The notes under the pieces are model-generated. The model made no database searches and was not told the origin of the DNA. It saw only the letters and a list, made by a program, of their open reading frames with translations. From a virus (Duplodnaviria > Caudoviricetes), in IMG/VR virus record IMGVR_UViG_3300030108_001765, positions 1-24,184 of that record: a DNA stretch of 24,184 bases. The stretch is one strand, 5' to 3'. Every line of letters begins with the position of its first letter. Position 1 is the stretch's first letter. A program made the position numbers and the translations under genes. Positions 1-24,184 of this stretch are shown in pieces.

Positions 1-1162
1 GTAAACCTGCGAGGGTTTCTGCTGCATGAGCAACGAGTCTTTGGAAGCCATTAGTTTCAATCATTATCTTGGTAGGTTTATACTTATCGGATAAAGAAAC
101 AATATTCTCTACTTGTTTTCTTAACCAACCTTCACCTTCTGCAATTACTTTACCTGTCCATTGATAAACTACTTGACGATCATTAGTGTCTCTGTTCCAA
201 GCTAATACACAGTAAGATGTTTCGTCATTTCTCTGATCTATACCGACAGCCAGATCAACTCCCATCACGATTTCCCAACCTTCTGGAACTACTCCCATTC
301 CTAAGTTGTCATCTAAACAAGGTTCTATAACTTCCCAAGTGATTAAAGCACTCTCAGGATCAATAGGATTTAACAAATACTCTGACTCAAAAGCTCTCGA
401 ACCCATCGTATGCTTTTCTTTCTCTAATCTTTCTAAAGTCCAATATTCTTTCCATCGAGGAGTTCCATCTTTCAAAAGTGCTGGATGTCTCAATGAACCC
501 CATTCCTTTGATTTAGTTACCCAATCTGCAGCATCATTAATTCTTTTTTGAGTTCCTATCAATACTACTTTGCCTTCGGGTAATCTCATTGGCATAACTA
601 CTCTTCTTATGTAATGTATGCTTTTCTCATCTGATAGTCTGGGAAACTCTGCAATAACGTCATCTAAAATTATTAAATGAACGTGAGGACCTTCTAAAGC
701 TTTACCAACTGAAGCTGCTTGGATTCTTGAACCATTTTTAAAATACTTAGCTCCTCTTCTCCAACCTCCACGATCTGTTCTTTCTTTAATCATAGGACTT
801 AACCAAAAGGTTCTTCTCGTAATTTCCTCAAATTGTTCTAACTTATCGAGAGCCTGATCAATAGTAGCCGACAAATACAAAGCTCTAAAATTAGGATTAT
901 TGGCCATCATATAAGCACAATAAGTTAAAATAAATGTAGTTTTCAAGTGACCTCTTGCACATAAGATTCCACTAAAAGTATTCTGATCAATACAATCAAA
1001 CCATTCTTCATGCATAGGAGATAAAGGAACAAACTTAGAAGGTTCTAATCTCATAAAGTCCTCTAACACTTCATTAGCAAAATCTAAGTATGGTAACTTC
1101 TCTTGTTGTATATGATCTAATAAGGATCCATTAAATAGATCTATAAGTTCTGCCTCATCCAT
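1..1162 (-). CDS. terL: Terminase large subunit (3' end runs off the window)
   Basis: Not in the ORF track; translated by hand from ATG at 1162 (MDEAELIDLFNGSLL...). Walker A-like ARGHLKTT, Walker B LIILDD, coupling motif VLIGT, RNase H-like nuclease start MGVDLA and IMIETNGFQ. No stop before position 1. Confidence 0.95.
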   Translation of the reverse strand, partial: MDEAELIDLFNGSLLDHIQQEKLPYLDFANEVLEDFMRLEPSKFVPLSPMHEEWFDCIDQNTFSGILCARGHLKTTFILTYCAYMMANNPNFRALYLSATIDQALDKLEQFEEITRRTFWLSPMIKERTDRGGWRRGAKYFKNGSRIQAASVGKALEGPHVHLIILDDVIAEFPRLSDEKSIHYIRRVVMPMRLPEGKVVLIGTQKRINDAADWVTKSKEWGSLRHPALLKDGTPRWKEYWTLERLEKEKHTMGSRAFESEYLLNPIDPESALITWEVIEPCLDDNLGMGVVPEGWEIVMGVDLAVGIDQRNDETSYCVLAWNRDTNDRQVVYQWTGKVIAEGEGWLRKQVENIVSLSDKYKPTKIMIETNGFQRLVAHAAETLAGL

Positions 1163-1322
1163 TTATTTTCTTCTTCCCGTAATCTGAAATCCTTGCAGAT
1201 ACTCCTTTTACTAATCGATCATGAACAAATTCATATTCTTCTAACTTATCCATAAGATCTATTATATTATCTGTTTCAAATAGAACCTCTCCTGTCTTAT
1301 CGTCTCTAATTCTAAAACTCAT
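1155..1322 (-). CDS. Small hypothetical protein (55 aa)
   Basis: Hand-translated MSFRIRDDKTGEVLFETDN...GKKKING*. ATGA overlap with the terS stop; overlaps the terL start. Confidence 0.65.
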   Translation of the reverse strand: MSFRIRDDKTGEVLFETDNIIDLMDKLEEYEFVHDRLVKGVSARISDYGKKKING

Positions 1323-1816
1323 ATTTCTTTAGTTTCCTCTATCCAATTTCTTATTATAGTATTTATTTGTTTTTGAGTCAATCCAGACTGTTTAAGGATT
1401 CTTGGAAGTTTCTCTGATACAAGTTTAACTATTACTCCTTTAGCATCAACAGCATCCTGTAACCTTTCTGCTTCTCTTATGATCCTAATATATTCGTCAG
1501 GTTTAATGTCTAAGACTTTGTCTTCCTTAAACATACTTAGCTTTTTAATAAATTGTAATTCTAAATTATCTAAGACTTTTAACCTTCTACTAAGCGTATA
1601 TGTAGCTTTCTGTTCAGTTCCGTTTACTACTTCCTCACGAATTCGATCTTTACTCTCTTCCCATTTATTGGATAGTTTCCATTTAGAAAGGGTTCCTTTG
1701 GAAACATTTACATCAAATTCTTCCTTTAAAGATTTTATAATGAACGCATAGCTTTCTCCGTTAAGGTAATAATAACGAGCTTTCTCTTTTACTGATTCAT
1801 TATATTTTATTGGCAT
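1319..1816 (-). CDS. terS: Probable terminase small subunit (N-terminal HTH)
   Basis: HTH-like N-terminus (KEKARYYYLNGES...VSKGTLSKWK...W), helical C-terminus, position just upstream of terL. Confidence 0.7.
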   Translation of the reverse strand: MPIKYNESVKEKARYYYLNGESYAFIIKSLKEEFDVNVSKGTLSKWKLSNKWEESKDRIREEVVNGTEQKATYTLSRRLKVLDNLELQFIKKLSMFKEDKVLDIKPDEYIRIIREAERLQDAVDAKGVIVKLVSEKLPRILKQSGLTQKQINTIIRNWIEETKEI

Positions 1817-2188
1817 CTATAACAACAACTTAGGTGTAAATTCCTGATCTGCTTCAATGACTCTTACTTCTAAAGGATAGAGACTTTTCTTTCTTTCTAT
1901 AGACTCTTTCTCTTCAGAACTAACTACTTCATATACAATACCTTCATCAGCATCAATAACATCAGCTCTCAATCCTGAATCATCAAATATAGCTTCTGTG
2001 TAAAACTCATGATCCCATTCTTTTAACGTCTTACAGATCTGAAACTTCATAGTAATATGTTCATCTGTTTCATTCTTTCCCCAACGTAAAGCATTTCTAT
2101 TTCTATTAGAGATCCTTAACAATCTACTAATATTATTACGTTGATACTGTTTGTTAAAATTGTTTTTATTGCTCAAAGGACTCTCCAC
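1817..2188 (-). CDS. Putative PD-(D/E)XK-fold nuclease
   Basis: Pattern H..K...TEA...RADVID....YEVVSSE resembles a restriction-endonuclease-like catalytic core. Confidence 0.5.
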   Translation of the reverse strand: MESPLSNKNNFNKQYQRNNISRLLRISNRNRNALRWGKNETDEHITMKFQICKTLKEWDHEFYTEAIFDDSGLRADVIDADEGIVYEVVSSEEKESIERKKSLYPLEVRVIEADQEFTPKLLL

Positions 2189-2696
2189 ACGAAGGACAAG
2201 TTATCATATTTGGTTTAGGATCTTCAGCAGTCTTGTTTGGTCCTATATCCATTTCTTCCCAATCAAATTCTAATAACTTTTCAAAGTTCTTCATTTCTTC
2301 TGTTGTGTCAGGCATAAACGTTTGTAATGTCTCAATGTCATATTCCTTTAGAACTTCATTAGCAAACAGATCTGCATAAGCTAAAAGATCATCATCAAAC
2401 CATTTATGATTACGTCTTCTTGCTATAGTAATTGCTTTTGCTTTACTAATAGATCCAAAGTTCTCACATGGAACCTTTTTCCACTTTAATAATTTAAGAG
2501 CCTCTAAACGATGATTACCATCTATAACTTCAAACTTATCATCAAGTTCTCTAACAGCTACAACCCCAGCGGATTGATCTTCTATAATGGATTTACTTAG
2601 TTTAGTGATCTCTTCAGAGGTTCCATCACTTTTGTAATTCCAGTCAGCAGGGACTAAGTCCTCAATGTTCATTTCTACTAATTGTGTTTTATTCAT
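2166..2696 (-). CDS. ParB/Srx N-terminal domain protein with C-terminal CxxC
   Basis: IEDLVPADWNY, FEVIDGNHRLEALKLL (ParB DGxHR motif), C-terminal CPSCG. Confidence 0.88.
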   Translation of the reverse strand: MNKTQLVEMNIEDLVPADWNYKSDGTSEEITKLSKSIIEDQSAGVVAVRELDDKFEVIDGNHRLEALKLLKWKKVPCENFGSISKAKAITIARRRNHKWFDDDLLAYADLFANEVLKEYDIETLQTFMPDTTEEMKNFEKLLEFDWEEMDIGPNKTAEDPKPNMITCPSCGESFEQ

Positions 2697-2702
2697 ATTT
2701 CC

Positions 2703-3599
2703 TCAATTTTGATTTCCAGCGTAACGGCTATATTGTTCTTTTAATGTCATTACAGATATAGCATAATTACCATAATAAGTCATATTCTGTGACTCTTTTC
2801 CTGTTGGAACTATTTGATCCTGTAAAAATATCTTTTCTATTTCAGGAACTAACAGATCGGCATGTTTCTTCATATTTCTTACTTGTACTTTTTTAAATCC
2901 ATCATTAGACAATACTGTTCCAACTCCATATCTGTTTACAGCATTCCATGAAGTAGAATCTGAACTATCACAGAATTTAGTTACTTTCATTATATCTTTT
3001 TGTGTACATCCTAACAGATGGATCTTAATATCAGGATTAACTTTTTTTATGATCTGACAAAGGCCTAAAGTTCTCATAGGTAGGTTATCCCAGCCTAATG
3101 ATCTAAACTCAGGAATACTTAACGCTATGTATTTTGACCAAGCCGCCATTTCTTTTAATCCATTAATACCATCATCTATATGCCAAACATTCATTTGTTG
3201 ATTAGGTAAAGCTTCTCTAAGTTCTTTTCTTAACTTCCAAGCATGATCAACTCCTAAGATCTTCTGACAGTCTACTTCTACAACTGTTCCTTTATATCCT
3301 GTTTCTAAAACAAAACGAATTATAGCTTTCTGCCAAGCTTCTACAAATTTAGCATCACGAGGTCCAGCGTGTGCTCCAAACATTAATGTAAATAAACCTG
3401 AATCCATTATAACGTGCTTGTAATGTTTATCTAAGTAATTGGCAACCTTAGGAATTGTCATCTTAAATTTGACTGCTTTTATGTCAAATTGATCTGCAAT
3501 AAAAGGAAAAACTGAAAAAAGACCATACTGAACTCCACATACCTTATTCAATACACAGGCAGAGTCCATTTGTTCTAATCCAGCAAAATGAACTTTCAC
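2703..3599 (-). CDS. dpdA: DpdA/TGT-like DNA-guanine transglycosylase
   Basis: TGT-family motifs IMDSGLFT, IHLLG and DSSDSTSW; directly downstream of 7-deazaguanine precursor genes. Confidence 0.78.
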   Translation of the reverse strand: MKVHFAGLEQMDSACVLNKVCGVQYGLFSVFPFIADQFDIKAVKFKMTIPKVANYLDKHYKHVIMDSGLFTLMFGAHAGPRDAKFVEAWQKAIIRFVLETGYKGTVVEVDCQKILGVDHAWKLRKELREALPNQQMNVWHIDDGINGLKEMAAWSKYIALSIPEFRSLGWDNLPMRTLGLCQIIKKVNPDIKIHLLGCTQKDIMKVTKFCDSSDSTSWNAVNRYGVGTVLSNDGFKKVQVRNMKKHADLLVPEIEKIFLQDQIVPTGKESQNMTYYGNYAISVMTLKEQYSRYAGNQN

Positions 3600-3946
3600 T
3601 TCTCAACCCTTCCTCCGCCTTTACCATCTTCCAAAACCTCTACCCATTCGCAGTCAAATTCTTCTAAAAGTATTTCTGCTATCATCTCACAGCTACGGTT
3701 ATTAAATTGTGCGGGAGACCCAAATGTGGTTTGGATCCAATTCTTAACCTTGTCTGTGTAGATAAAGATCTCTTTTTCTCTGTTAGCATGATCTACAGTC
3801 CATGCCATTCTGATCTGAAATAAATGTCTGTGATCATATTGTAAAAACTCTACAGGCTCAGGAGCCATAGGGTAATGATGAAATCCTTCTACTTCAAAGT
3901 CAGCTATCATAAATTGTTTAACTGGAACTTTTTTGTAGATCTCCAT
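3596..3946 (-). CDS. dpdL: QueD-paralogous T-fold protein, DpdL-like (predicted CDG decarboxylase)
   Basis: EGFHHY, LQYDHRHLF (LxxxHRHxF) and SCEMIA...EDG. It is a second QueD-like gene next to a canonical queD. The DpdL signature is recalled from memory, not checked. Confidence 0.65.
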   Translation of the reverse strand: MEIYKKVPVKQFMIADFEVEGFHHYPMAPEPVEFLQYDHRHLFQIRMAWTVDHANREKEIFIYTDKVKNWIQTTFGSPAQFNNRSCEMIAEILLEEFDCEWVEVLEDGKGGGRVEK

Positions 3947-4494
3947 TACTCCTCCGTAAACTCTAAGAATTCATCTCTTGCTTTATGATCGTCTTTCATG
4001 AATCCCATTAATGAACTTGTAACCATGTTTCCTTCCTTTTTAATTCCTCTCATTTCCTGACATAGATGTCTTCCTCTACATACAACTCCAAGACCTCTTG
4101 GTTTTAATTCATTCCATAAAAACTTAGCAATATCTTCTGTCATGTATTCTTGAGTATTTAGTCTTCTTGAAAACTTATCTAACGTTCTTGCTAATTTAGA
4201 GATCCCTACTATTTTACCATCTGGAATGTAACCTATAGAACAAGTTCCAAAGAACGGGATCATATGATGCTCACAGAATGAATAAAATTTTAAACCTTTT
4301 GATATTATCATCTGATCGTAATCTTTATTCTTAAAAGTAGTGCAAGTAAATTCATCTGGGTTCAAAAACTCGTTCCATAACTTAGCTACTCTTTTTGGTG
4401 TGTCTTTCAATCCGTCTCTTTCAGGATCTTCTCCTATTGAAAGTAACAAATCATATACTGCTTCTTCTGTTAGTTCTCTATTGTTTCTTGACAT
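3946..4494 (-). CDS. folE: GTP cyclohydrolase I (type IA)
   Basis: GEDPERDGLKDTPKRVAK, SFCEHHMIPFFG, GISKLAR, HLCQEMRG. Confidence 0.97.
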   Translation of the reverse strand: MSRNNRELTEEAVYDLLLSIGEDPERDGLKDTPKRVAKLWNEFLNPDEFTCTTFKNKDYDQMIISKGLKFYSFCEHHMIPFFGTCSIGYIPDGKIVGISKLARTLDKFSRRLNTQEYMTEDIAKFLWNELKPRGLGVVCRGRHLCQEMRGIKKEGNMVTSSLMGFMKDDHKARDEFLEFTEE

Positions 4495-4496
4495 AT

Positions 4497-5444
4497 TTAT
4501 GTTCCTATTGCGTTACCAAATAAATAACAATGTAATCTACCTGAGACATTGTAACCTCTCTCGTATGCCATCTTAGCTATTTTACCAGCTGAAGCTTCTT
4601 GTTCTTCTACTGTAGCTCCTACAGGCATAATGTAAACAGGCCAATCAATTCCTTCATCTCTATATAATTGAAGAACCTCTTCCATCTCATTCCATTGTTC
4701 TCTTTTTGATCCTAAAACAAACTTCAATTGTCCTGATGGTGATCCTATTGAAGTTCTTCTGTTAACTATGTTTCCTAAATTGTAATAATCTTTTACTACT
4801 TTTGGTTTTATAGCTCGTTCTCTTTTCTCTCCTGCAACTGTCCATAGTTTAGGAGATACAGAAAAAAATACAGGAATGTTCCATTTATTCCTGTCGAGTA
4901 AATAATCTGTAAATTCTGTAGACAATTTCTGAGTCCCATTAGTCTCCCATGTAATACATTTAGGTGTAATTAAATAATCCCATTCTTCGTTCATTTCTAT
5001 TACACATTTCTGAGCAGATCTCATTAATGGTTCACCTCCTGTAATACAAAGGTGTGCTGTTTGTTTTGATCTGGGGTGATAGAAACCTCCTATAGGATTA
5101 GTATCAGTAATAGCTACTTCATTTATTTTTTTAACTATTTCTTTAGCTGTAGCTTGTTTCATTAAATGTTTAAACTTAGATGACCAAGTGTAAGAACTAT
5201 CACAACCTTTCTCCCACACAGGCAGATCTTCTACCTTCTCTATTCCTTCCAGATCATAATCCTTGTATGGCAATTCATAAGACTCAGGATCGGAAGGATC
5301 TAATTGTCCAAAACCATTACATTGTAAATTACAACCAAAGAATCTTATCCACAAAGTATGTGATCCTGTATAGTAACCTTCTCCTTGTATAGAATTGAAA
5401 ATCTCAGAATAAGTATATTTTCTTGGTAAATGAGGATCGCTCAT
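4497..5444 (-). CDS. queE: 7-carboxy-7-deazaguanine synthase (radical SAM)
   Basis: SEIFNSIQGEG, IRFFGCNLQC...CDS, ITGGEP, ETNGT, SVSPK, RLH; CX3CX38C cluster motif. Confidence 0.93.
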   Translation of the reverse strand: MSDPHLPRKYTYSEIFNSIQGEGYYTGSHTLWIRFFGCNLQCNGFGQLDPSDPESYELPYKDYDLEGIEKVEDLPVWEKGCDSSYTWSSKFKHLMKQATAKEIVKKINEVAITDTNPIGGFYHPRSKQTAHLCITGGEPLMRSAQKCVIEMNEEWDYLITPKCITWETNGTQKLSTEFTDYLLDRNKWNIPVFFSVSPKLWTVAGEKRERAIKPKVVKDYYNLGNIVNRRTSIGSPSGQLKFVLGSKREQWNEMEEVLQLYRDEGIDWPVYIMPVGATVEEQEASAGKIAKMAYERGYNVSGRLHCYLFGNAIGT

Positions 5445-5884
5445 AATCTTCTTCCAAAAGTGGCACTATTGGATCCATGTTCAAAACATTCCACAGATAC
5501 TAATCTAACTCTTCCTGTAGTTTCATGATCTATTTTATTACACCAATATGAAAAAACAAATTCAGCAAAAGCTTCACAACCTACATTTCTTAGGATCCTA
5601 ACATTAGCTATATCTGTAAGATCCTTGAGTCTTTCAATTTCAGGATCATCTGAAGCTACCATCATTACATGATCGAAATGCTTTTCTAAAAATGCTTTGA
5701 TAGGTTTCATTCCTCCAAAGTCATATACCCAATTTCTGTCGTCAAGAGTTTGGGCCTCGAATGTGAATCTAAATCCTAAACTATAACCATGAATTAGTTT
5801 ACAATGAGAGTCAGCTCTCCATTGTCTAAATGCACATGAGAGACCCTTTTCGTTCCCATAGGTCTTCGTCACTCTATAAGTCAT
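5441..5884 (-). CDS. queD: 6-carboxy-5,6,7,8-tetrahydropterin synthase
   Basis: HCKLIHGY, DFGG, FDH, GCEAFAE, FEHGSNSA. Confidence 0.93.
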   Translation of the reverse strand: MTYRVTKTYGNEKGLSCAFRQWRADSHCKLIHGYSLGFRFTFEAQTLDDRNWVYDFGGMKPIKAFLEKHFDHVMMVASDDPEIERLKDLTDIANVRILRNVGCEAFAEFVFSYWCNKIDHETTGRVRLVSVECFEHGSNSATFGRRL

Positions 5885-6024
5885 TCAATCTTCTCTACCT
5901 TTTCTCTTATTGTTTCTCTTAACAGATCTGAAACAGGCCATCTTTGTTTCTTAGCATGATCCTTAAACTTTTTCCAAATTTCTGAGTATTCGTCTGTAAT
6001 TGTAAGCAAATATGTCTGTGACAT
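5881..6024 (-). CDS. Ribbon-helix-helix transcription regulator (47 aa)
   Basis: Hand-translated MSQTYLLTITDEYSEIWKKFKDHAKKQRWPVSDLLRETIREKVEKIE*. Beta-strand plus two helices with SDLLRETI; ATGA overlap with queD. Confidence 0.75.
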   Translation of the reverse strand: MSQTYLLTITDEYSEIWKKFKDHAKKQRWPVSDLLRETIREKVEKIE

Positions 6025-6042
6025 AATATACGATTGTATAGG

Positions 6043-6059
6043 TATATATAATAATATAT
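6043..6059 (-). promoter_or_regulatory. Archaeal-type TATA promoter for the modification/packaging operon (leaderless)
   Basis: TTATATAT at 6051-6044 in an AT block, about 19 nt before ATG 6024; no SD. Confidence 0.55.
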
Positions 6060-6064
6060 CTCAA

Positions 6065-6901
6065 TTAATACCCATCATAACAATCACAAGGCATAGGATC
6101 ATTTTCTTCTGGAACTTCACACGAGTCCATGTAGTCAAAAATATTAGTCTGAGTCTCTATTTCTCTTTTTAACCAATCTAACCTGTTAGGTTTAGCTCTT
6201 ACAAATAAAGGAAATTCTGGAAACTTTTTACTGTTAATTTCTAATTCTAAAGATTTGTTAAAAAGTTCGGGAGACTTATGATAAAGATCTATCCAACTTT
6301 TTTTGCTTTGAAATGGACAAAAATAACATCCTGACTTCTTAGGGTTAGGCCATCCATATTCTTCAATAATTCTACGGCATCCTTCTCGATCTATCTCCCA
6401 GTCAATTAAAGGGTATTTTTTATTTGGATATAGGTAGATCATCTCTCCCGTTTCAGGATCCTCTACTTGTTTAGCTCTATGACTCTCTCCTGAATCTATT
6501 CCTATCAATTCTAAAGAGTCAGGGTATTTTTCTTTGACTAATCTTGTAATTGGTATAATCTTAAAATTATCTGTGCAAGATCGTTTCCATACTGAAGGAA
6601 CTGACCGAGTATAAGTGTACCAATCATATATAGTTACTTTTTGACCTTCTTCCCAATCTCCTTTCTGAACTGCACCTACTCGAGGTCCAGCTTTGTAAAA
6701 AACTATTTCAAAAGGAATATTATGATCTTCACAAAAAGGTTTGACGTATTGATCTATAAACTCATATGTGTAAGGTTGTTCTGATCCTGTGTCAGCAAAT
6801 ATAACAGCATCCAATTGTTTACCTCTATTGATCCATTCTAACAATAATGCAGTAGAGTTTGTCCCTCCTCCATAACTCAGTATAGTTGTTTTAGTCTTCA
6901 T
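6065..6901 (-). CDS. PAPS-reductase-like PP-loop (adenine nucleotide alpha-hydrolase) protein with Cys clusters
   Basis: SYGGGTNSTAL, FADTGSE, CTDNFKIIPI, YPLIDW, KSGCYFCPF, terminal CDC. Confidence 0.8.
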   Translation of the reverse strand: MKTKTTILSYGGGTNSTALLLEWINRGKQLDAVIFADTGSEQPYTYEFIDQYVKPFCEDHNIPFEIVFYKAGPRVGAVQKGDWEEGQKVTIYDWYTYTRSVPSVWKRSCTDNFKIIPITRLVKEKYPDSLELIGIDSGESHRAKQVEDPETGEMIYLYPNKKYPLIDWEIDREGCRRIIEEYGWPNPKKSGCYFCPFQSKKSWIDLYHKSPELFNKSLELEINSKKFPEFPLFVRAKPNRLDWLKREIETQTNIFDYMDSCEVPEENDPMPCDCYDGY

Positions 6902-6986
6902 TTTCTATAAAATAAATAACTTCGTCTATTTCTTTACTTATCAATCCTAACAATTCTAATAAGTGTTCTTGAATAGCTGGTTTCAT
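6891..6986 (-). CDS. Possible microprotein (31 aa)
   Basis: MKPAIQEHLLELLGLISKEIDEVIYFIENED*; fills the gap with overlapping start/stop junctions. Confidence 0.35.
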   Translation of the reverse strand: MKPAIQEHLLELLGLISKEIDEVIYFIENED

Positions 6987-7052
6987 TCTTTAGTCATCCC
7001 CCTTTGTTCTGCCATTAATTCTAACAGTTTCTTTTTTTTCTTTTTCTTACAT

Positions 7053-7427: not shown

Positions 7428-7450
7428 GCTTATTCCGTAATAGATTGCCC

Positions 7451-7458
7451 CTTATAAA
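7451..7458 (-). promoter_or_regulatory. TATA box (TTTATAAG), leaderless promoter
   Basis: 23 nt upstream of ATG 7427. Confidence 0.55.
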
Positions 7459-7523
7459 TTAGTTGAATTAACCTATACAACTTATTAGATTTATTATATA
7501 ATATAAATAAGAAACTATTTGTA

Positions 7524-7859: not shown

Positions 7860-7884
7860 ATATGAGGTTATATATCAATCTATA

Positions 7885-8350: not shown

Positions 8351-8377
8351 TTTTTTCTCCTTTGTTTTGTTCGAGGA

Positions 8378-8704: not shown

Positions 8705-8706
8705 TG

Positions 8707-8999: not shown

Positions 9000-9204
9000 C
9001 CTTATACTTCCCAGATTGTATATCTTCTATCATAGCACCCATTAACAATACCATCATATGCAAACCAACATCAAAAGCTTCAAGCTGTTTACCTTTGTAT
9101 TTCATTACATTATCTCTTCTAAAATTCTCAGCGTGTTCAATTAATGAGTCTAATTGAACTACCCAAGCATCATGTAAAAAATGTTCACCTTCTAATTCAG
9201 TCAT
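8992..9204 (-). CDS. Hypothetical protein (70 aa; start revised to MTELEG at 9204)
   Basis: GGAGGT SD before ATG 9204; this start avoids a long overlap with the methyltransferase. Confidence 0.6.
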   Translation of the reverse strand: MTELEGEHFLHDAWVVQLDSLIEHAENFRRDNVMKYKGKQLEAFDVGLHMMVLLMGAMIEDIQSGKYKDE

Positions 9205-9757
9205 TAGTAACCTCCAAAGTAGTCTGTCCGTCTTGATCTGTATCAGATTCATTACCCCAAACATCCCAGCCTTGTCTTTTTGATCTTGCAAACAATTCCA
9301 GATAAGGCCCTGCACTAATTGATTCTATCCTGACATATTGTTCCTCAGGCTTTTGACTGTGCTTTTTTCTTTTTGCTTGGATCACTGAAGAACAAGAACT
9401 ATCTGGAATCTTGTTTCTATGAAACTTACCTTTCACTCCAAATAACATAAGCTCATGTTGACCTCTAAAATATTGACCTAAACCAAATCTATCCTTGACC
9501 CATACAATATTCGTAATGTATCTAAATCCTAAGTTTTCCATTATATTGATACCGTCTTTGAGGAAATTGTTAGTAACCCATATGTAACAATGAGCATCAT
9601 CAGCTATTCTTCCTTTGTCGTTTATTCCATCCACAATTGCAGGAAGCATATCTTTAGGTTTAATTAGAGGGTAATGTTTGTCTGCTCCTCTTTTGATCTT
9701 ACCTCCACCTGTTTCATTCCAAGGAGGATCCATCATTATAGTCCTATATTCTTTCAT
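9197..9757 (-). CDS. MT-A70-family N6-adenine methyltransferase
   Basis: YRTIMMDPPW, HYP, WVTN, GFRY, WVK, GLGQYFRGQHE, HSQKPE, YLELFAR, GWDVWGNE. Confidence 0.92.
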   Translation of the reverse strand: MKEYRTIMMDPPWNETGGGKIKRGADKHYPLIKPKDMLPAIVDGINDKGRIADDAHCYIWVTNNFLKDGINIMENLGFRYITNIVWVKDRFGLGQYFRGQHELMLFGVKGKFHRNKIPDSSCSSVIQAKRKKHSQKPEEQYVRIESISAGPYLELFARSKRQGWDVWGNESDTDQDGQTTLEVTND

Positions 9758-11353: not shown

Positions 11354-11375
11354 TTTTCACCTTTGTTAAATTAAC

Positions 11376-11395: not shown

Positions 11396-11414
11396 GCTTG
11401 ATGCTGAAACTTAT

Positions 11415-16445: not shown

Positions 16446-16460
16446 TTAACCTACCTAACA

Positions 16461-17864
16461 TTATAATAACCAATCAGTTGAAATTGCATACGAACTTGTA
16501 TCGTATTTAGTTCCTTCTCCTGAAAATTGTATAACTAAATCTTCTGGAGTTTCTGTTCCTGCCGTATAAGGAGCTGTTCGTGTTATGATCTTACCATTAG
16601 TTAATGCTATCTTATACGAAGATCCACCTTCTGAAATTGCTATTTCCATAAGTGGAACTTTGAGATCAGACTGTAAAGCATCGTAAAACGTTTCGTCTTT
16701 GCTTGTAGTCTTTAATTCTAAAGTAACTGTTGAAGCTCCTCTAAACACGTTGGCATTTTGTAATGTATGAGTTATAGAGTTGGCTGTCTTAGCTTGAGGA
16801 ATAGATCCTAAATTATTAGCTAATGTTAATTTAAAAGATTTTAAATAAGGAACTTCTGTTAAAGTATCTACAGCATATATGTAATAAGGATCATCAGAAA
16901 CGTTACCGTTTCCTGACGTGTTATAGATTCCTTTTACTAATTGAGTAGATGGAATAGTGTTTGCACTTGATCCTGTATCTTCACAAGCCCAACCTGAAGC
17001 GTCATTAATAATCTTAGCAATTCCACCATTAGCTCCTGAAGTTGTTCCATCTCCTATAATCAATGCATTAGCAGATTGTAGATCTATATGACCTGTTGTA
17101 TTTACTGCAGTAGACAAAGCATCATTAACATAGAATACCATATAGCGTTCACCGACCTCTACATAACTGTTAGCAGGGCCATCAATCTTCAAACCTTTGT
17201 CTAAAGTAGTAGCTAAGTTTCCTCCTTGTGATCCATATTTTACTGTAATGTCTTGTCCTGTAGCAGGAGATGAAGAAGGAACCGCCCCCGCAGAAACAGA
17301 TCCGTAATTTGACCGAACAAAACCACTTGCCGAAAAGTCCCTTGCTCCAGTGTATGATGTTTGACCTGCTGGTCCTTCTTCACTCCAATAGGCTAAAGTG
17401 TCACAATTTAGAGTGGCTAAGGAACCTGTAGTCATATCTGCTTCAAGATCAATAGAGTTAAAAGAAACTCCTGATACTAAAGTAGCTTGAAAATTAGATC
17501 CAATTTTTTCATCTGCTAAAATTGAAACACTATCTATTCCAGTAGTTAGTTTTTGTCCTACTAATTTGGATCCACTAATACTGTATGTGGTTATTCCCAA
17601 AGCTCTTGCTATGAAATTTCTCCATGCAGAACCATGTAAACCAATTTTTAGTGGACATTGTATGTTTATTGGCCCACTTAAGATATGGGCGTTACTACTT
17701 TGACCAATACTGGAAATAGGCGTATATTGTCTATCAAACATTCTTGGATCAAAAGTGTCAAGCGAACCTGTATGGTTTAATGCGTCAGCAGCAGGAGTTC
17801 CATAAGTAGACTCTGCATTCCAATAAGCATTAACCGACTGTGGCATTCTTACATTGTTTGTCAT
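16461..17864 (-). CDS. Major tail tube protein with inserted domain
   Basis: N-terminal ESTYGTP, SFKLTLANNL, beta-rich; position in the tail module. Confidence 0.7.
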   Translation of the reverse strand: MTNNVRMPQSVNAYWNAESTYGTPAADALNHTGSLDTFDPRMFDRQYTPISSIGQSSNAHILSGPINIQCPLKIGLHGSAWRNFIARALGITTYSISGSKLVGQKLTTGIDSVSILADEKIGSNFQATLVSGVSFNSIDLEADMTTGSLATLNCDTLAYWSEEGPAGQTSYTGARDFSASGFVRSNYGSVSAGAVPSSSPATGQDITVKYGSQGGNLATTLDKGLKIDGPANSYVEVGERYMVFYVNDALSTAVNTTGHIDLQSANALIIGDGTTSGANGGIAKIINDASGWACEDTGSSANTIPSTQLVKGIYNTSGNGNVSDDPYYIYAVDTLTEVPYLKSFKLTLANNLGSIPQAKTANSITHTLQNANVFRGASTVTLELKTTSKDETFYDALQSDLKVPLMEIAISEGGSSYKIALTNGKIITRTAPYTAGTETPEDLVIQFSGEGTKYDTSSYAISTDWLL

Positions 17865-18289
17865 TAGGCGATCACCTCATAGCTTGTTAATTCCAAATCT
17901 AAAATATACCGATACCATCGTTTATTCCGATCTGTGTTATCTACCCGTGAAACAGGCCTTAACAATTGATAACTTGAATTAGGATCTATTTCTTTTAATC
18001 TTAAGATCCTTAATACCTCGCCATACATATCTCGTAAATGAGTTCTGCTTTTTGGTGTAGACATATCTACACTCACTCTCCAAGAACCTCGATCTAATGT
18101 CTTACCTACCAAACCAACTTCGTGTGTGCCTGAAACTTCATAGCACTTTATTAGATCTTTTTTAATCATGTTTAACTTACCAATATCCCAAGAGTCTCCG
18201 ATCTTAGGAGTCCTGCTATTAGTGTTACTTGCATTCCAATTAGAATTTAATAATCCTGAAACTGTTGTTACAGGATCAGCTATAACCAT
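17864..18289 (-). CDS. Tail terminator / completion protein
   Basis: 141 aa alpha/beta protein immediately upstream of the tail tube. Confidence 0.55.
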   Translation of the reverse strand: MVIADPVTTVSGLLNSNWNASNTNSRTPKIGDSWDIGKLNMIKKDLIKCYEVSGTHEVGLVGKTLDRGSWRVSVDMSTPKSRTHLRDMYGEVLRILRLKEIDPNSSYQLLRPVSRVDNTDRNKRWYRYILDLELTSYEVIA

Positions 18290-18984
18290 TATGCTCTCCT
18301 CAAGAAACTGTTATCTATTTCTATTCTATTTGACACTTTAGCAATAGGAATAATTCTTCCCTGTCTTGATCTTAATTTTAATATATCCATAGCTTGAGTT
18401 TTCAGATCTGCACTACTAATTAACTGAGCATCTGAATTATCAAACATACTTACTACGTCTGCTGCAGTCATTAACATAGTGGCTTTTCTAATATCTGCTG
18501 GTGTTGAAGCCGTACCATAAGTGTACGTTGCATAAGCTTTTACTCCTGTAGCAGATGAATTTAAATTAAATTGTTGATAACTTTTCAAATAGATCTTACC
18601 GTTTTCAGAATCTACCCAATAGTCTCCACTTAAAGGATCTGTAAATGTCCCTGCTGTGTAATCAGAAGATGCTACATAATCTACAAAGGAACCTCCTTTC
18701 CAAACATGTAAGTTAGTCAAAGAAATTAATGGATAGTGATCTAACTGAATTACTCCTCTGTTTCCAATAGTGTTAGAAGCTACTGTCTGAACTTTTAAAG
18801 GTTCTTTAGTTACAGTTCCAGCTCTACTGCTACTCCATGCATGATCTGTATATTCATCAATAAATGTTTCGTTGTTTTCAATTAGCAATTCAACTTGTGA
18901 AGATGTTGGAGTTGTTGATCCTGAAAAGGCATCCATCTGAAGAAAGTCAGAGACTTGTCCATGTGTAGTGTAGTAAACAGCCAT
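18289..18984 (-). CDS. Head-tail adaptor (HK97 gp6/SPP1 gp15-like)
   Basis: YTTHGQV, FIDEYT, TYTYG...PADIRKATMLM. Confidence 0.72.
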   Translation of the reverse strand: MAVYYTTHGQVSDFLQMDAFSGSTTPTSSQVELLIENNETFIDEYTDHAWSSSRAGTVTKEPLKVQTVASNTIGNRGVIQLDHYPLISLTNLHVWKGGSFVDYVASSDYTAGTFTDPLSGDYWVDSENGKIYLKSYQQFNLNSSATGVKAYATYTYGTASTPADIRKATMLMTAADVVSMFDNSDAQLISSADLKTQAMDILKLRSRQGRIIPIAKVSNRIEIDNSFLRRA

Positions 18985-19766
18985 CAGAGGAAATGAGTTA
19001 GAGCTGAGTTAACTAACTTTTCACTTGTTGTTGCTACAACCATTCCATTCATATCAATTGGTTGTCCTGCCATATTCCAACCTATAGCTCCTACAGGTAA
19101 TGTTGTATATCCTTGTTGAACTGCTAAAGGTGGAGGACCTCCTCCGTTTGCTGTATAGTATTGTTCACCATTAGCTAATTGATCAATTTGAGGGGGTGGT
19201 AATTGCCAAGCTTGTGGTTGTTGCATTGATGCTCCAGTTCCAATTCCAAACCATGTCCAAGGTTTTAGCATACTTGCTCCACCTTGTTGCATCATAGGTT
19301 GTTGACCATAAGGATTCATTCCCATTTGTTGTTGGTAAGGATTCATCTGTTGAGGAGGTGGAGCTTGTTGAACGGTATTGGTTTCTCCATATGGATTGTC
19401 CCAATTAGTTATAGAATGGTGAGCATTTCCTTCCTGATTGCTCCACTCCTCATGTAAACTTAATCTTGCATTTAATTCATTAGCAGCTTCATCTCCTAAC
19501 ATAGCTCGAGGTTGCCAATCGATCTGACTTTCACTAACTTGTTTTAAGAAATTTATATGATCATCTAATTCTGTAGGTAACTGAACGTCAGTAGCTTCAC
19601 ACAATCCTTTCAACATAACCATGTAGTCATGTATAATTGGGTAAAGATATTGTACAGTTCTCATTACTGTGTTCTCTGCGACACGAGCATCAAAGTCAGG
19701 ATGCTGTATTCGATCAACCGCTACGGGGTTGAGATAACCTGCTGGGGATCCGTGGTAACCACTCAT
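18984..19766 (-). CDS. Hypothetical protein with Q/P/G/M-rich low-complexity region
   Basis: Helical N-terminal half followed by QQAPPPQQMNPYQQQMGMNPYGQQPMMQQGG; coupled to the adaptor gene. Confidence 0.75.
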   Translation of the reverse strand: MSGYHGSPAGYLNPVAVDRIQHPDFDARVAENTVMRTVQYLYPIIHDYMVMLKGLCEATDVQLPTELDDHINFLKQVSESQIDWQPRAMLGDEAANELNARLSLHEEWSNQEGNAHHSITNWDNPYGETNTVQQAPPPQQMNPYQQQMGMNPYGQQPMMQQGGASMLKPWTWFGIGTGASMQQPQAWQLPPPQIDQLANGEQYYTANGGGPPPLAVQQGYTTLPVGAIGWNMAGQPIDMNGMVVATTSEKLVNSALTHFL

Positions 19767-20140
19767 TCCATAAAACTCCTATTCATTAACATAACTTCGG
19801 CTGTCATATATTCATCATAATCTCGTTGATGCATTATACAAAAACCTCCTCCTGTAAAAGATCCACAATACGGACATTCGTCTTTATTATGTCTCCTAAC
19901 CAAACCAAACCATTTACGGGTGAGACGAGAATGCTTACTTCTTAGACGTTTAACGTAGTAACTCAATTCTCTGTCGTCCATTTGATTTTTGTCCTGTAGC
20001 TTAGAGGTAGACACCACATATTGTTGACGCTGAGTTACTATTGGTTGATTAGGAGTCGAAGAGATCTCTTGTTTAGGATCTTGAGAAATTTGTTGACCTA
20101 CTTTTGGTCTTTTCATTGTAACCATCGGGGGAACAGTCAT
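19763..20140 (-). CDS. Hypothetical protein with C-terminal Zn-finger
   Basis: H...CPYC...CIMH; disordered Q/P-rich N-terminus. Confidence 0.7.
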   Translation of the reverse strand: MTVPPMVTMKRPKVGQQISQDPKQEISSTPNQPIVTQRQQYVVSTSKLQDKNQMDDRELSYYVKRLRSKHSRLTRKWFGLVRRHNKDECPYCGSFTGGGFCIMHQRDYDEYMTAEVMLMNRSFME

Positions 20141-20163
20141 TATCAGATCTTATACACTTTCAG

Positions 20164-20171
20164 AATATAAA
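20164..20171 (-). promoter_or_regulatory. TATA box (TTTATATT), leaderless promoter of the neck/tail operon
   Basis: 23 nt upstream of ATG 20140. Confidence 0.55.
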
Positions 20172-20192
20172 CCTAACTATGGTTTCCGTATT

Positions 20193-20576
20193 CTAAAGTC
20201 CTCCCTTTCTCATCATCTTTCCTGTTCGTATTGCAGCTTGACCAGCATGAACTGTAGGATCAAAAAACGCTTTAGCAATCAAAGCTTTCAATGTAGCTAA
20301 TGCAGCACTCAATATCATTAACATAAATAAGAATCCATTATAGATCCAAGCTACTCCCCAAACATACATAGCAGCATCTAAGAAATATTCTTCTAAAAAT
20401 AAACCTGCATATAGTCCTAAAGCTCCTGATCCTAACATAAAACCAAATAACCAAATTACTCTTTTCATCCACATCCATTCTATGTAACGAATAAAGTCAA
20501 CATCTGACTTACCTCCAGCTCCAAAGTTAGAAGGGTAACGATCTGGACTGAATAACATATTGCGAATAAACTTCAT
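20193..20576 (-). CDS. Two-TM membrane protein (holin-like topology)
   Basis: Two long hydrophobic segments and a basic C-terminus (RTGKMMRKGGL). Confidence 0.7.
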   Translation of the reverse strand: MKFIRNMLFSPDRYPSNFGAGGKSDVDFIRYIEWMWMKRVIWLFGFMLGSGALGLYAGLFLEEYFLDAAMYVWGVAWIYNGFLFMLMILSAALATLKALIAKAFFDPTVHAGQAAIRTGKMMRKGGL

Positions 20577-21403
20577 GGTCTTACCACATAGGACATATCT
20601 AAATAACTGTTTTGTTCTTTTGCTATTTCTGCATATACATCCGATTTAAACTTTCGTGTGATCTGATAAGCTACCTCATAACCTATTGGATCTACATCTC
20701 CGTTTCCAAGATCAATCCATTTAGGGTGATATGTGTAAACGACGACTTTCCTAAAAGACGGTCTAAAGTCCATTTCGTCAAAATACTCTACATATGATTC
20801 ATGATTAATCTCTTCATCTTGTAAAGATATAATTTGATTGTCATTTAAGAATCTTAATATTGTATTATTTATTTTATCAATAGGAACAGCTTTGCTAACA
20901 AATAAAGATGTCTTCCATCTAAAAACGTGTTCAGGAGTTAAGTTCTCTACTAAAGAATGTAACAATTCTTCACAGCTTATAATGACTTCAGACATATCAA
21001 AAGTTCTTACCTTGATTCCTCTAAAATTAAAATCTTTAGCTTTTCCTATAACTTTACCATTTTGATTACTGATCTGAATCCAATCATCTATAGCAAACTC
21101 TGTTTTGTAAGCTACAGTCATAAATGAAAAGGCATTGTTTAAAGGACTGTATTGAGAAAAAGCAGCATAAGTAATAGCTGCTAAACCTGCTACATTTTCG
21201 ATCTTGTTTAAATATCCTCCGTATAACAATACTCCTACACCAAAAATAATTATACCCATAACTCCGAAGATCTGAGTAGCTGCTTTAGTTTTAAGATCTC
21301 TAATTTTAAACGATCCTGCATTCTGATTACCTACGGCTTTTATTGCTCCTGTAGTTAAAATAAATACTACAATTGCCCATGCAAACAGAATAGCTGGATC
21401 CAT
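20573..21403 (-). CDS. MscS-family mechanosensitive channel-like protein
   Basis: Three N-terminal TM segments, then FAIDDWIQI...GKAKDFNFRGIKVRTFDMSEVIISCEELLHSLVENLT, matching the MscS beta-domain consensus (F.IGDWI...G.V..I..R.T.IRT.D...V.IPN..L....I.N). Confidence 0.78.
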   Translation of the reverse strand: MDPAILFAWAIVVFILTTGAIKAVGNQNAGSFKIRDLKTKAATQIFGVMGIIIFGVGVLLYGGYLNKIENVAGLAAITYAAFSQYSPLNNAFSFMTVAYKTEFAIDDWIQISNQNGKVIGKAKDFNFRGIKVRTFDMSEVIISCEELLHSLVENLTPEHVFRWKTSLFVSKAVPIDKINNTILRFLNDNQIISLQDEEINHESYVEYFDEMDFRPSFRKVVVYTYHPKWIDLGNGDVDPIGYEVAYQITRKFKSDVYAEIAKEQNSYLDMSYVVRP

Positions 21404-21873
21404 TAGTCCAACATCTCGGCTTCTTGAACAGGCTTGATTTCTCCAGTTACAGGATCAACATATTCTTTTTCATCTTGCGGAGGAATAAAGTTCTGCATCA
21501 TCTGTTGTGGAGGCATCTGTTGTTGCATCTGTTGTTGAGGCATCATCTGAGGCATCATCTGTTGAGGCATCATCTGAGGAGGAATCATCTGAGAGGGCAT
21601 ACCAAGAGGTTTAGCTTTCTCTCTTGATCTGGAAGATCTGCTCCTTTTAAGGTCGTCTAAACGTTCGGCAGTTAAGGAAGCGTTTGTCAAGATTGCAAAG
21701 GTAAAAGATCCTGAAACAGCTCCATACCAAATTGAATCTTGAGGATCCATAGATCCAACATACATTAGGGTAAATGCATTAGCTATAAACACTAACAAAC
21801 TTGCCATTCTATTATAGGATAATCTAACCTCATGAAGGTTGCGATCATCGGCCATATCATCGGCAAATACCAT
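21403..21873 (-). CDS. Two-TM membrane protein with M/Q/P-repeat tail
   Basis: Two hydrophobic helices, basic S/R patch, MPQQMMPQMM repeats, YVDPVTGEI motif. Confidence 0.75.
   Translation of the reverse strand: MVFADDMADDRNLHEVRLSYNRMASLLVFIANAFTLMYVGSMDPQDSIWYGAVSGSFTFAILTNASLTAERLDDLKRSRSSRSREKAKPLGMPSQMIPPQMMPQQMMPQMMPQQQMQQQMPPQQMMQNFIPPQDEKEYVDPVTGEIKPVQEAEMLD
21493..21600 (-). repeat. Imperfect in-frame tandem repeat (ATG-CCT-CAA/CAG-ATG units)
   Basis: Repeated gaggcatcatctg / catctgttg units of 12-15 nt on the + strand, encoding (M)MP(P)Q(Q). Confidence 0.85.
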
Positions 21874-21893
21874 AATACCCTAACGGAACGTAG

Positions 21894-21901
21894 CTATAAA
21901 A
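21894..21901 (-). promoter_or_regulatory. TATA box (TTTTATAG), leaderless promoter of the membrane cassette
   Basis: 20 nt upstream of ATG 21873. Confidence 0.5.
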
Positions 21902-21904
21902 GAA

Positions 21905-22190
21905 ATTCAAAATACCGACACGCAGGACAGACGTCTCGATGTCGCATCTTGAGTAGGGTATCAAAAGATAGCCGATCAATCAGAGGATGGAGGGATTTCG
22001 GCTCATTCTGATTACGTTGGCCCTTAAGGTTAATCCCGAACTTATTGATCAAGTAAGTACAGTTTTTACAGTCATATAAATGAAGTCTATATGTTAACTG
22101 CTCTGAACACCAACAACCTGCGTGTGTGTGCAGATCAAAGGTAGGTTCGATTAATACGCATTGGTTCTTACCAAACCGATGAGCTGCAAT
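21905..22190 (-). ncRNA. Candidate structured non-coding RNA (~280 nt), family not recognised; strand tentative
   Basis: No credible ORF and more GC-rich than the flanks. 9-bp long-range helix 21918-21926/22117-22125, several hairpins and a possible pseudoknot. TATA box upstream and T-rich tract downstream on the minus strand. Confidence 0.6.
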
Positions 22191-22207
22191 TTACATATTA
22201 TATATGT

Positions 22208-22215
22208 ATATATAA
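22208..22215 (-). promoter_or_regulatory. TATA box (TTATATAT) upstream of the candidate ncRNA
   Basis: Same octamer as at 6051-6044 and 11383-11376; about 19 nt before the first helix (22188). Confidence 0.5.
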
Positions 22216-22240
22216 CAGTTGCCTTGTTTAGTATATAAGT

Positions 22241-24184
22241 TTAGGATCCTGTAACTAATTCTAAAGCATTATCTAAAGCAGGTTTGGTTAATCTAAGATC
22301 ATCATCCCCTGCCTCATCTGCATCCAATAACTGCTGAGTGTCTAAGGTGTGATGGAATTGTCTTATGTTACCTGTACAATTAGTTACAGAACCTATTACC
22401 GTTAAATCACCTGTAACATCTAAATTACTTACATCTCCTACTATCTCAAATCCACCGCCAGCAGATTCAGGAATGTTAGTTGGAGTTTTTGTAGAATCTC
22501 CTGTCACTCTTGTGTTTCCTGTTGTAAGTGTTGATGAGGATGACATTGTCCAAGTATCTGATGCACCTGTGTAAAAATTTAAAGTAGAATTTCTTAAATC
22601 TAAAGTACCTGTATTTACATCTACATTTTTTGCAGCTATTGTATTACCATTAGCATTGTAGGTTGTACCGCTGTTTACTTCTAACTCTTCTGTAAGTGTA
22701 TGATTGCCTGTTGCTATTACTGAAGAAGATGAAGTTAAATCTAATCTTTTTGTAGTCAAAGCAGGTAGGTTTAAATCACCGCTACTTACCGATACTCCTA
22801 GTTTGTGTAATCCAGTCATAGTTCCTGAAAAGTCGTGAGTCTTACCTGCCGTTCGCAGTTTTAACTCTGAAATGCCTGAAGCTGTTAAAGTTCCAGTAAC
22901 TACAAGATTACCAAACAAATCTATAGTAGCTCCTGAAGCTACTCCAAAACCAGTTATACTAACTGTAGAACCTGCGTTGATTGTTATATTTTCGAAATTG
23001 TCAGAATTATAAAAATTCAAATTTTGTGTTCCAGACTTAGCAAATACAAGCGTAGAAGTGCCTTGTGTAAATGTTCCTCCTCCTACCCAGTTAGGTGCGT
23101 TACCTGCTGGGCCTAAAGTTCCTGTGTTACTGTTTGCACTTGAATCTGCTGTAGTATCACCATTACCGCCTGTGCCTTCATCAAATACATATTGAGCTAC
23201 TAATCCACCTTCTGAACTAGCTAACTGCGAAAACATATTACTACGGATTTCAGATTCAGATCTTATATCGTTAAACAGTCTTACCATATCAATAACACCA
23301 TCAAAAGTTTTAGATGTTGCTGCACTATTTCCAATTAATAATTCATTTGTTTCGTCAGAGTCTCTAACTCCTGTGGTTGAAAGTGCATTTGTTAAAGCGA
23401 CTTGTTTACCATTTACATACATTTTAGGTAAGTTTGAAGGTGAACCGTTATCATACGTAACAGCAACGTGATTCCATTTACCTATATCAATTACTCTATC
23501 TGTAGTAGAAAAGCTTGCATCCATACCATCAAAATATTGATACAATCTTAATTTCGTTTTAGAACCTGATTCTGCTTCTACATTAAAAATCCATCTGTGT
23601 TTGTCGGCAATACGACCATCGTTTCCTTCTCCGTCTGAATCTGGTTTAATCCAAGCTTCTACGGTTCCACCACTATCAAAAATATTGTCTATACTGCTGT
23701 CACTTCCACAGTCAACCTTACTAGCAACACCATCAAAGTCAAGCCCACTCTTACCAATAAGACCACCACTGGTAGTAAAATCTCCTGATACTGTAAGTGT
23801 ATCATCTGAACCATCTAACGTGCCTCCTGTTGCAACAGTTAAATTACCACATTTGTTATTAGTTCCATTTATACTTCTGTAAGTTCCTGAACCAACAATT
23901 AGATTACCTGCATAAGCTCCTGAATTATTCCAATCACAACTTGTCGTTCCATTGTTAATTAATATATTTGTTGTAGAATCTCCAGTAAAAGTAGAATCAT
24001 TAAAAGTCATATTCTCTCCGCCTGAACTTCCTGTAACAATAAATGAAGCTCCAGCTTCTCCTGTATAAGTTCCACTATCAATATTTATTCGTGGTGCGAT
24101 AAGCATACCTGCACCAAAGTCTACATTACAACTTCCTGAACTTGCTGTAAAATTACCAGAACATTCCATCCTCTGTCCATTCAG
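22241..24184 (-). CDS. LamG/concanavalin-A domain adhesin or fibre protein (5' end beyond the window)
   Basis: LDFDG...TVEAWIKP...WNHVAVTYD...MYVNG...FDGVIDMVRLFN...GLVAQYVFDEG, flanked by G/T/S-rich beta-helix-like repeats. The frame stays open past ATG 24169 to the window edge. Confidence 0.85.
   Translation of the reverse strand: MNGQRMECSGNFTASSGSCNVDFGAGMLIAPRINIDSGTYTGEAGASFIVTGSSGGENMTFNDSTFTGDSTTNILINNGTTSCDWNNSGAYAGNLIVGSGTYRSINGTNNKCGNLTVATGGTLDGSDDTLTVSGDFTTSGGLIGKSGLDFDGVASKVDCGSDSSIDNIFDSGGTVEAWIKPDSDGEGNDGRIADKHRWIFNVEAESGSKTKLRLYQYFDGMDASFSTTDRVIDIGKWNHVAVTYDNGSPSNLPKMYVNGKQVALTNALSTTGVRDSDETNELLIGNSAATSKTFDGVIDMVRLFNDIRSESEIRSNMFSQLASSEGGLVAQYVFDEGTGGNGDTTADSSANSNTGTLGPAGNAPNWVGGGTFTQGTSTLVFAKSGTQNLNFYNSDNFENITINAGSTVSITGFGVASGATIDLFGNLVVTGTLTASGISELKLRTAGKTHDFSGTMTGLHKLGVSVSSGDLNLPALTTKRLDLTSSSSVIATGNHTLTEELEVNSGTTYNANGNTIAAKNVDVNTGTLDLRNSTLNFYTGASDTWTMSSSSTLTTGNTRVTGDSTKTPTNIPESAGGGFEIVGDVSNLDVTGDLTVIGSVTNCTGNIRQFHHTLDTQQLLDADEAGDDDLRLTKPALDNALELVTGS

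Follow-up and report, generated by a model that had tools for sequence, protein, structure and literature searches.

The haloarchaeal tailed viruses covered in PMC8651126, as far as its account of this word goes, carry GATC at 6.47-11.04 sites per kb when they encode a phiCh1-like Dam and lack it entirely when they do not. A second line of comparison is the archaeal DndCDEA-PbeABCD system, for which the relevant sections of PMC6459918 describe phosphorothioate at GpsATC on 1.4-2.6% of sites, escape of phosphorothioate-modified virus from PbeABCD, and carriage of dndCD by a marine group II/III euryarchaeote. Here we examine a tailed-virus DNA of 24,184 nt (‘the window’, meaning the whole stretch analyzed), which is the complete record IMGVR_UViG_3300030108_001765 and about two-thirds of a genome, relatives having genomes of 34-36 kb. 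Restriction normally drives the loss of target words from viruses; in this virus the word GATC has been pushed up, and the enzymes considered as its cause include a PAPS-reductase-family protein resembling SspD and DndC, encoded at 6065-6901. The excess is genuine and pronounced, and no artefact accounts for it; the case for selection is good, while that for any one enzyme is weaker.

The GATC excess

The window contains 222 GATC sites, 221 of them within 1-22300, where base composition predicts 71.3, giving a density of 9.9 per kb and a roughly three-fold excess. This confirms the over-representation reported by the initial annotation, whose hand counts (39 sites in 1-4020 and 10 in queE) proved exact. 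A Markov tetramer test, which it had also called for, puts GATC first among all 256 tetramers (second-order observed/expected ratio, O/E, of 1.86; z 17). The excess further survives the codon-preserving shuffle that had been named as the refuting test, with 213 sites observed in 37 genes against 109.8 when synonymous codons are pooled (500 shuffles, maximum 129) and 119.9 when they are shuffled within genes (maximum 137), ruling out a codon or amino-acid artefact. For example, the Ile codon ATC is used in 51 of 94 cases after G and in 29 of 367 elsewhere in the window, and Asp followed by C is encoded by GAT in 110 of 114 instances.

From the start to 22000, each kb contains 6 to 16 sites. The previously noted limit of enrichment at 22300 is likewise real: a single GATC lies in 22300-24184, where 18.7 are expected. 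This tract is occupied by a LamG gene (22241-24169), which is likely a recent import marking the edge of the GATC finding, as it is GATC-poor beyond 22300 and home to three of the window's four CTAG words, a foreign word usage. Large LamG- or adhesin-like genes are also the GATC-poorest in the relatives G001 and G017.

Other words behave differently. Across the whole window CTAG (4) and GTAC (15) are avoided and CCGG, GCGC and CGCG do not occur; the counts for 1-22300 are one CTAG, 12 GTAC and none of the other three. CCGG is missing from 74 of 80 family loci, and the avoidance of CTAG and GTAC differs by clade, which suggests that CCGG, CTAG and GTAC are targets of restriction in the hosts. 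AGCT shows a mild excess (131 in the window, with 102 under the codon shuffle).

Probable selection on individual sites

Relatives were collected with a terminase profile, yielding a viral set of 80 loci and a metagenome set of 80 loci that represent partly the same viruses (cited below by L and G numbers); relationships were taken from a quick terminase tree and a FastTree portal tree. Across 23 shared genes, positions where GATC is synonymously possible are realized as GATC in 160 of 424 cases in the window, 246 of 394 in G002 and 181 of 406 in G001; the corresponding figures are 26 of 279 in G013 and 0 of 303 in G003. All 11 codon contrasts in the window favor GATC, the interval lying above 1 for nine of them, and this applies to transitions as well as transversions; all four positions of the word are favored, the T-over-C contrast being partly generic (Asn control 3.2 vs 10.7). 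A deamination or Vsr-type bias was rejected because transversions and transitions are favored equally strongly and ATT following G is not depleted relative to ATA.

Existing sites are also retained. Of the synonymous positions inside GATC, 2 of 317 differ between L001 and L184 (14.0 expected) and 1 of 22 between the window and L001 (8.6 expected), and most informative pairs show fewer such differences than expected, two further pairs being too alike to judge. Moreover, fewer GATC pairs lie within 12 bp than a codon-aware null predicts: 6 vs 12.5 in the window (P 0.009), 96 vs 161 in nine loci that are not independent of one another, and 65 vs 98.9 in three genomes, where the z of -5.0 is the lowest among 69 words. 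Independent mutation would not produce such a shortage, and a footprint of about one helical turn may underlie it. The clusters pointed out in the initial annotation (1114/1125/1138, 3790/3812/3832 and 21626-21752) do exist, but they are not a feature, as close pairs are rarer than the null. A longer shared motif was rejected, given that flank preferences differ among five rich genomes.

At the protein level, the residue pairs DP and DH stand at 1.48 and 1.63 in five rich genomes and at 0.77 and 0.40 in four poor ones, but the control pair NP stands at 1.43 and 1.37, respectively, so that an amino-acid shift is no more than suggested. Taken together, shuffle survival, bias at all four positions, site conservation and the shortage of close pairs argue for selection rather than mutation bias, and the GATC excess is very probably the product of selection for a marked site. 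The idea that GATC is positively selected to serve as a mark across the genome is supported.

A family split between GATC-rich and GATC-free members

Among the 80 viral loci, GATC is absent from 41, intermediate in 30 and above an O/E of 2 in nine, and the metagenome loci divide similarly (37 zero, 35 intermediate, 8 rich); rich relatives reach 18-20 sites per kb. A 168-aa protein with a PD-(D/E)xK-like motif, encoded just upstream of the terminase gene in L044 (2821-3327) and its relatives and not present in the window, accompanies most of the GATC-free members. It occurs in 34 viral and 23 metagenome loci, GATC being absent from 34 and 22 of these, respectively (56/57), and 63 more loci fetched with it, many overlapping the earlier contigs, hold 1 GATC in 504 kb, with 1,828 expected. 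Its carriers form related clades and so represent few independent events, and 22 zero-GATC loci, including the near-complete G003, have no visible copy. The nuclease profile has no sequence match in the PDB; a structural model (predicted local distance difference test score, pLDDT, of 71) resembles known folds only weakly (best E 0.007), almost always those of PD-(D/E)xK-type nucleases. We regard this protein as a candidate virus-encoded GATC nuclease. The family's variable slots hold other genes as well: a Mom/DruA-like protein (L016:9173-9883), an unannotated pair (phrog_15826 and a 99-aa protein; L015:4521-5464), a glutamine amidotransferase (L069:2091-3038) and an amidoligase (L050:153-1439).

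Candidate modifying enzymes

The window (GC content 34.7%) is a partial tailed-virus genome with terminase, ParB, DpdA, DpdL, FolE, QueE, QueD, PAPS-reductase-like, MT-A70 and tail genes. Its main features are as follows.

1-22300, no strand: GATC-rich genome body with 221 sites, evenly distributed over all genes (counts)
2-1162, minus strand: terminase large subunit, running off the window (phrog_38, E 1e-55); the marker used for collecting the family
1319-1816, minus strand: probable terminase small subunit (weak PF10668 match, E 0.007, and position)
2166-2696, minus strand: ParB-domain protein adjoining dpdA; in relatives the ParB domain is fused to a methylase at the same place
2703-3599, minus strand: DpdA-like DNA guanine transglycosylase (phrog_887, E 2.5e-16)
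3596-3946, minus strand: DpdL homolog with the LxxxHRHxF motif defined in PMC10516641, predicted 7-carboxy-7-deazaguanine (CDG) decarboxylase (39.7% identical to Cellulophaga phage phiST, 31.7% to ACP17)
3946-4494, minus strand: FolE, GTP cyclohydrolase I (PF01227, E 4e-59)
4497-5444, minus strand: QueE radical SAM enzyme, 10 GATC (phrog_2076, E 6e-51)
5441-5884, minus strand: QueD (PF01242, E 3e-16)
6065-6901, minus strand: PAPS-reductase-family PP-loop protein, SspD/DndC-like (PHROG 424, E 8e-32; PADLOC SspD, E 5e-21)
9197-9757, minus strand: MT-A70 methylase (PF05063, E 3e-17)
22241-24169, minus strand: LamG-domain protein (PF13385)

The initial annotation had proposed the DpdA-like enzyme, the MT-A70 methylase or a host Dam-like methylase as the source of a GATC mark. 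The first two are poorly supported, as set out below, and its list omitted the PAPS-reductase-like gene, which tracks the enrichment best. The PF01507 match of this protein is weak and it has no sequence match in the PDB; it has conserved cysteines at C109, C192 and C195, all in invariant alignment columns, and its model (pLDDT 86) matches PAPS/APS reductases first, followed by TilS, MnmA, TtuA and LarE. Family copies conserve a C-terminal stretch of QTxLFDF type (QTNIFDY / QTSLFDF), which we take to resemble a sliding-clamp-binding motif. Its gene neighbors queD and a ribbon-helix-helix gene. An open reading frame of <50 aa (about 5885-6030, minus strand) lies directly upstream of queD; it is conserved in both L001 and L006, and visual inspection suggests a ribbon-helix-helix regulator. 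Scanning for sigma-70 matches around the PAPS-reductase-like gene gave chance-level results.

Comparison of carriers with their sisters in the portal tree links this gene to GATC content repeatedly. Carrier L329 has an O/E of 3.34 and its sister L202 one of 1.59; carriers L034 and L221 reach 2.6-2.9 vs 0-1.07 in five sisters; L025 reaches 2.06 vs 0.72-0.77 in its sisters; and L336 reaches 2.14 vs 1.18-1.28 in non-carriers. A near-identical ParB-methylase is found in L025 and L213, which carry the gene (2.06 and 2.55), and in L018 and L203, where the gene was not seen (1.32 and 1.29). The gene is 89% identical between the window and L034, their terminases being 62% identical, and in rich lineages it is usually GATC-richer than the rest of its locus. 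In L187 (O/E 4.05, the same clade as the window by portal), a ParB-methylase and the PAPS-reductase-like gene replace the window's cassette in the 21 kb examined of its 35 kb. By sequence, then, this gene is the best gene correlate of GATC enrichment across clades, although it is neither necessary nor sufficient for it, and none of the viral genes combines both properties.

A possible partial phosphorothioate self mark

Our preferred reading, held tentatively at a probability of roughly 40%, is that GATC serves as a partly modified ‘self’ mark, likely a phosphorothioate placed by the viral SspD/DndC-like enzyme, so that more sites would bring more protection. GATC would be selected site by site, each site being able to carry a protective mark, with the enzyme, aided by the host, introducing phosphorothioate at GATC. 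Only part of the sites would be marked, the marks being read as a passport and unmarked sites costing little, so that more sites would mean more marks, which inverts the logic of classical restriction; in the archaeal phosphorothioate system the host's own DNA tolerates unmodified sites, and a virus would therefore gain from offering more sites. The enzyme or its reader may cover about one helical turn, in which case a second site within 12 bp would add little. Members without the gene, such as G001, might rely on a host enzyme, on their own DpdA or on an inherited excess. Relatives with the PD-(D/E)xK nuclease may have taken the opposite route, cutting GATC-containing DNA and purging the word from their own. 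That the whole family divides into these two strategies, stand-alone SspD-like phosphorothioation with many well-spaced GATC sites and a GATC-directed nuclease with the word erased, is a broader proposal drawn from sequence that we consider rather doubtful.

Several observations weigh against the phosphorothioate reading. The main counter-case is G001 (36.5 kb, CheckV 100%), which has an O/E of 3.2-3.5 and lacks the PAPS-reductase-like gene, and whose own small open reading frames are very GATC-rich (16-36 per kb). Conversely, some carriers barely exceed non-carriers: L217 and L219, with a copy 77% identical to that of L020, stand at 0.74 and 0.81 vs 0.59-0.62, and eight carrier loci with another subtype at 1.24-1.82 vs 1.18-1.28. 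L337 has a 45% homolog and zero GATC, and no clear excess of the word is seen at 19 loci outside the family that carry homologs. The absence of the gene from most sisters holds for the fetched stretch, whole records having been checked for G001, G003, G013 and G021. No DndD/SspC ATPase, DndE/SspB or cysteine desulfurase, the last of which may be host-encoded, was recognized among the 34 window proteins (Pfam, PHROGs). In addition, the fold is common to tRNA thiolases, TilS and LarE, and so does not fix the chemistry. On the side of selection, site conservation is not clear between L005 and L002 (9 of 72, 11.4 expected).

Host and alternative explanations

The virus is likely marine with an archaeal host. 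The window itself lacks the capsid gene, and the test was made on the close relative L001, whose capsid protein, compared with 50,697 records, matches only the haloviruses HVTV/HCTV and a virus of Methanofastidiosa, which places it in the archaeal-virus clade. From the capsid clade, as placed in the relevant part of PMC8651126, and the GC range of the family (32-56%), we infer a host of marine Thermoplasmata type. Terminase and capsid profiles found no host genome among the GTDB genomes. No polymerase was recognized in the proteins of the window or G001, and replication is therefore likely host-dependent.

Such dependence would fit a host enzyme, either a Dam-like methylase or a host Dnd, that marks GATC, with the viral genes as lineage passengers and a benefit to the virus from more marked sites. 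One clade is rich (2.9-5.7) under four different cassettes, those of the window, L001, L006 and L187; G001 is rich with neither a recognized methylase (a scan of 41 open reading frames gave no hit to PF02086, PF01555 or any methylase family) nor the PAPS-reductase-like gene; and GATC is modified across marine archaeal metagenome-assembled genomes (MAGs), as reported in PMC8919816. The portion of its supplement used here (60 of 70 GATC rows and 30 of 33 archaeal rows) puts GATC modification at 14-51% in marine euryarchaeal MAGs, where type calls are mixed and low coverage could be an alternative cause, and at 91-99% in Thaumarchaeota. However, very close viruses range from 0 to 2.9 in step with the mobile viral gene, and the gain from extra methylated sites is left unexplained. 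The sampled candidate hosts are themselves GATC-poor: ten of these marine euryarchaeal MAGs, the ones computed here, have O/E values of 0.36-0.95 if the counts, all of them even, cover two strands, or double that otherwise, and both versions lie below the rich viruses, so copying of host composition does not explain the excess. We consider a host-made mark somewhat unlikely.

Improbable on present evidence is that DpdA swaps guanine for 7-deazaguanine at GATC, so that denser sites would give a denser nuclease shield. The window encodes DpdA, FolE, QueD, QueE and DpdL, with QueC absent from the window, and its cassette is predicted from sequence to yield 2'-deoxy-7-deazaguanine (dDG). Motif specificity of a DpdA is known, namely GA in phage iggy, according to the relevant part of PMC10484667. 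The rich window, L001, L005 and L006 have ParB plus DpdA, and DpdA was found in no other terminase-family record of the 32 searched (the fourth hit, G028, is an unrelated virus). In favor of DpdA, the complete G001, which has a DpdA cassette, is rich with DpdA as its only recognized modifying enzyme. Against this, the three DpdAs in the window's clade are only 21-44% identical, the window's enzyme sharing 21% with that at the same place in L001. Loci of the window DpdA family (n = 80) have a median GATC O/E of 0.54, with 6 above 2 and 24 nearly GATC-free, and those of the sister family (n = 79) a median of 0.59, with 4 above 2 and 21 nearly GATC-free; the closest fetched relatives of the window's DpdA (57%) stand at 1.11, 0.98 and 0. 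Moreover, L187 and the 18 kb fragment G017 are rich with no DpdA in the DNA examined, and the dpdA gene of G001 holds 6.8 GATC per kb, below its genome.

The 7-deazaguanine cassette (2703-5884) is swapped among close relatives, other DpdAs standing with QueC in L001 (5290-8435) and L006 (5827-8831). The window DpdA did not retrieve the phiST DpdA3 by tblastn. Two unrelated DpdA-carrying viral loci, L103 and L414, have GATC O/E values of 3.25 and 3.51.

Quite improbable, too, is a neutral ratchet, in which a GATC mark steers local mismatch repair to the marked strand and sites are lost more slowly than gained with no fitness benefit. Such a process would likewise lift all four positions and preserve sites already present, but the shortage of close pairs requires an extra assumption, no repair gene was recognized in the window or G001, and the sampled hosts with modified GATC are depleted in the word. 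Guidance of packaging by marked GATC, as at the phage P1 pac site (PMC12707154, in its treatment of that site), is very unlikely even though modification genes adjoin the terminase genes across the family: terminases more than 90% alike in the tree span O/E values of 0 to 2.6, 41 of 80 members package with no GATC in view, and the sites are even and unclustered. A local cluster of pac type was rejected on the counts per kb and the under-representation of close pairs. Marking by the MT-A70 methylase, although it is present in the window, can practically be dismissed, as orthologs 77-84% identical occur in eight loci at O/E 0.59-1.36 and the rich L001, G001, L187 and L034 lack it.

ParB or the ParB-methylase as a cause was rejected, since they also occur in the poor loci L191 (0), L206 (0.62) and L204 (0.72). 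In the rich L034, L025 and L187 the methylase halves resemble one another at only about 40-44%, and zero-GATC L191 has, from 5472 onward, a ParB protein with its methylase half mostly missing. PF05869 carriers other than L001 have O/E values of 0.74-1.84. No Dam-type methylase was recognized in the window, a partial genome in which MT-A70 is the only methylase seen.

A conserved block of five genes at 18984-21873, between the head-tail and adhesin genes, is kept in G001, G003 and G013; it encodes Q/P-rich proteins as well as one with an MscS beta domain (20573-21403).

Significance

GATC fills 40-60% of protein-permitted positions, under a spacing rule, while half of the family has none. Viral PAPS-reductase homologs, whose role was left open by a 2024 preprint in its treatment of them, gain GATC as a predicted target and with it an inexpensive assay, and the 168-aa nuclease gains a predicted site, so that sequence by itself offers a way into both orphan enzymes. 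Should the sulfur mark prove real, it would settle whether natural phosphorothioates occur in viruses, a point raised in PMC6459918, and would show partial-modification defences shaping virus genomes. The two-strategy proposal, if true, would mean a virus-encoded backbone sulfur modification and a defence mark that drives motif gain, not avoidance. Even if the mark is host-made, the pattern informs on the defence systems of uncultured marine archaea.

Comparison with known systems

We found no paper on GATC enrichment in this virus family or on a virus-encoded phosphorothioate enzyme, subscription journals lying outside the search. Several described systems share part of the pattern. The five-gene set of DpdA, FolE, QueD, QueE and DpdL with no QueC, together with the DpdL motif, resembles the Cellulophaga phage phiST-type pathway of PMC10516641; a link to GATC is neither known from the portion of that work drawn on here nor found in our analysis. 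Phage P1, as treated in the sections of PMC12707154 on pac, depends on modified GATC and has modification genes near its packaging genes, but its site is local, whereas the sites here are genome-wide and avoid close pairs.

The likeness to archaeal Dnd/Ssp, in the parts of PMC6459918 concerned, lies in a sulfur-transfer subunit of the PAPS-reductase family (a family-level match, best to PADLOC SspD), in the GATC motif, and in partial modification and escape of modified virus, which are features of the archaeal system. The viral gene differs in standing alone on a virus, with no ATPase, DNA-recognition or desulfurase subunits recognized in the window. The window's system would work like a modification passport but is no member of Dnd/Ssp, because the ATPase and recognition subunits were not found in the window.

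Closest in outward pattern are the haloviruses. The window's density lies within the halovirus range, and 41 of 80 relatives have zero GATC, as does HVTV-1, the best capsid match (0 in 50 kb). The differences are that no Dam-type methylase was recognized in the incomplete window or the complete G001; that at about 35% GC the same density amounts to a three-fold excess, with relatives at 18-20 per kb; and that the best correlate here is a PAPS-reductase-like gene, GATC-free members mostly carrying the nuclease. The pattern is thus of a known kind, since the halovirus account in PMC8651126 ties a GATC split to a phiCh1-like Dam. A division into GATC-rich and GATC-free viruses was already known; new here are a rich state with no recognized Dam, the degree of saturation, the spacing rule and two associated orphan enzymes.

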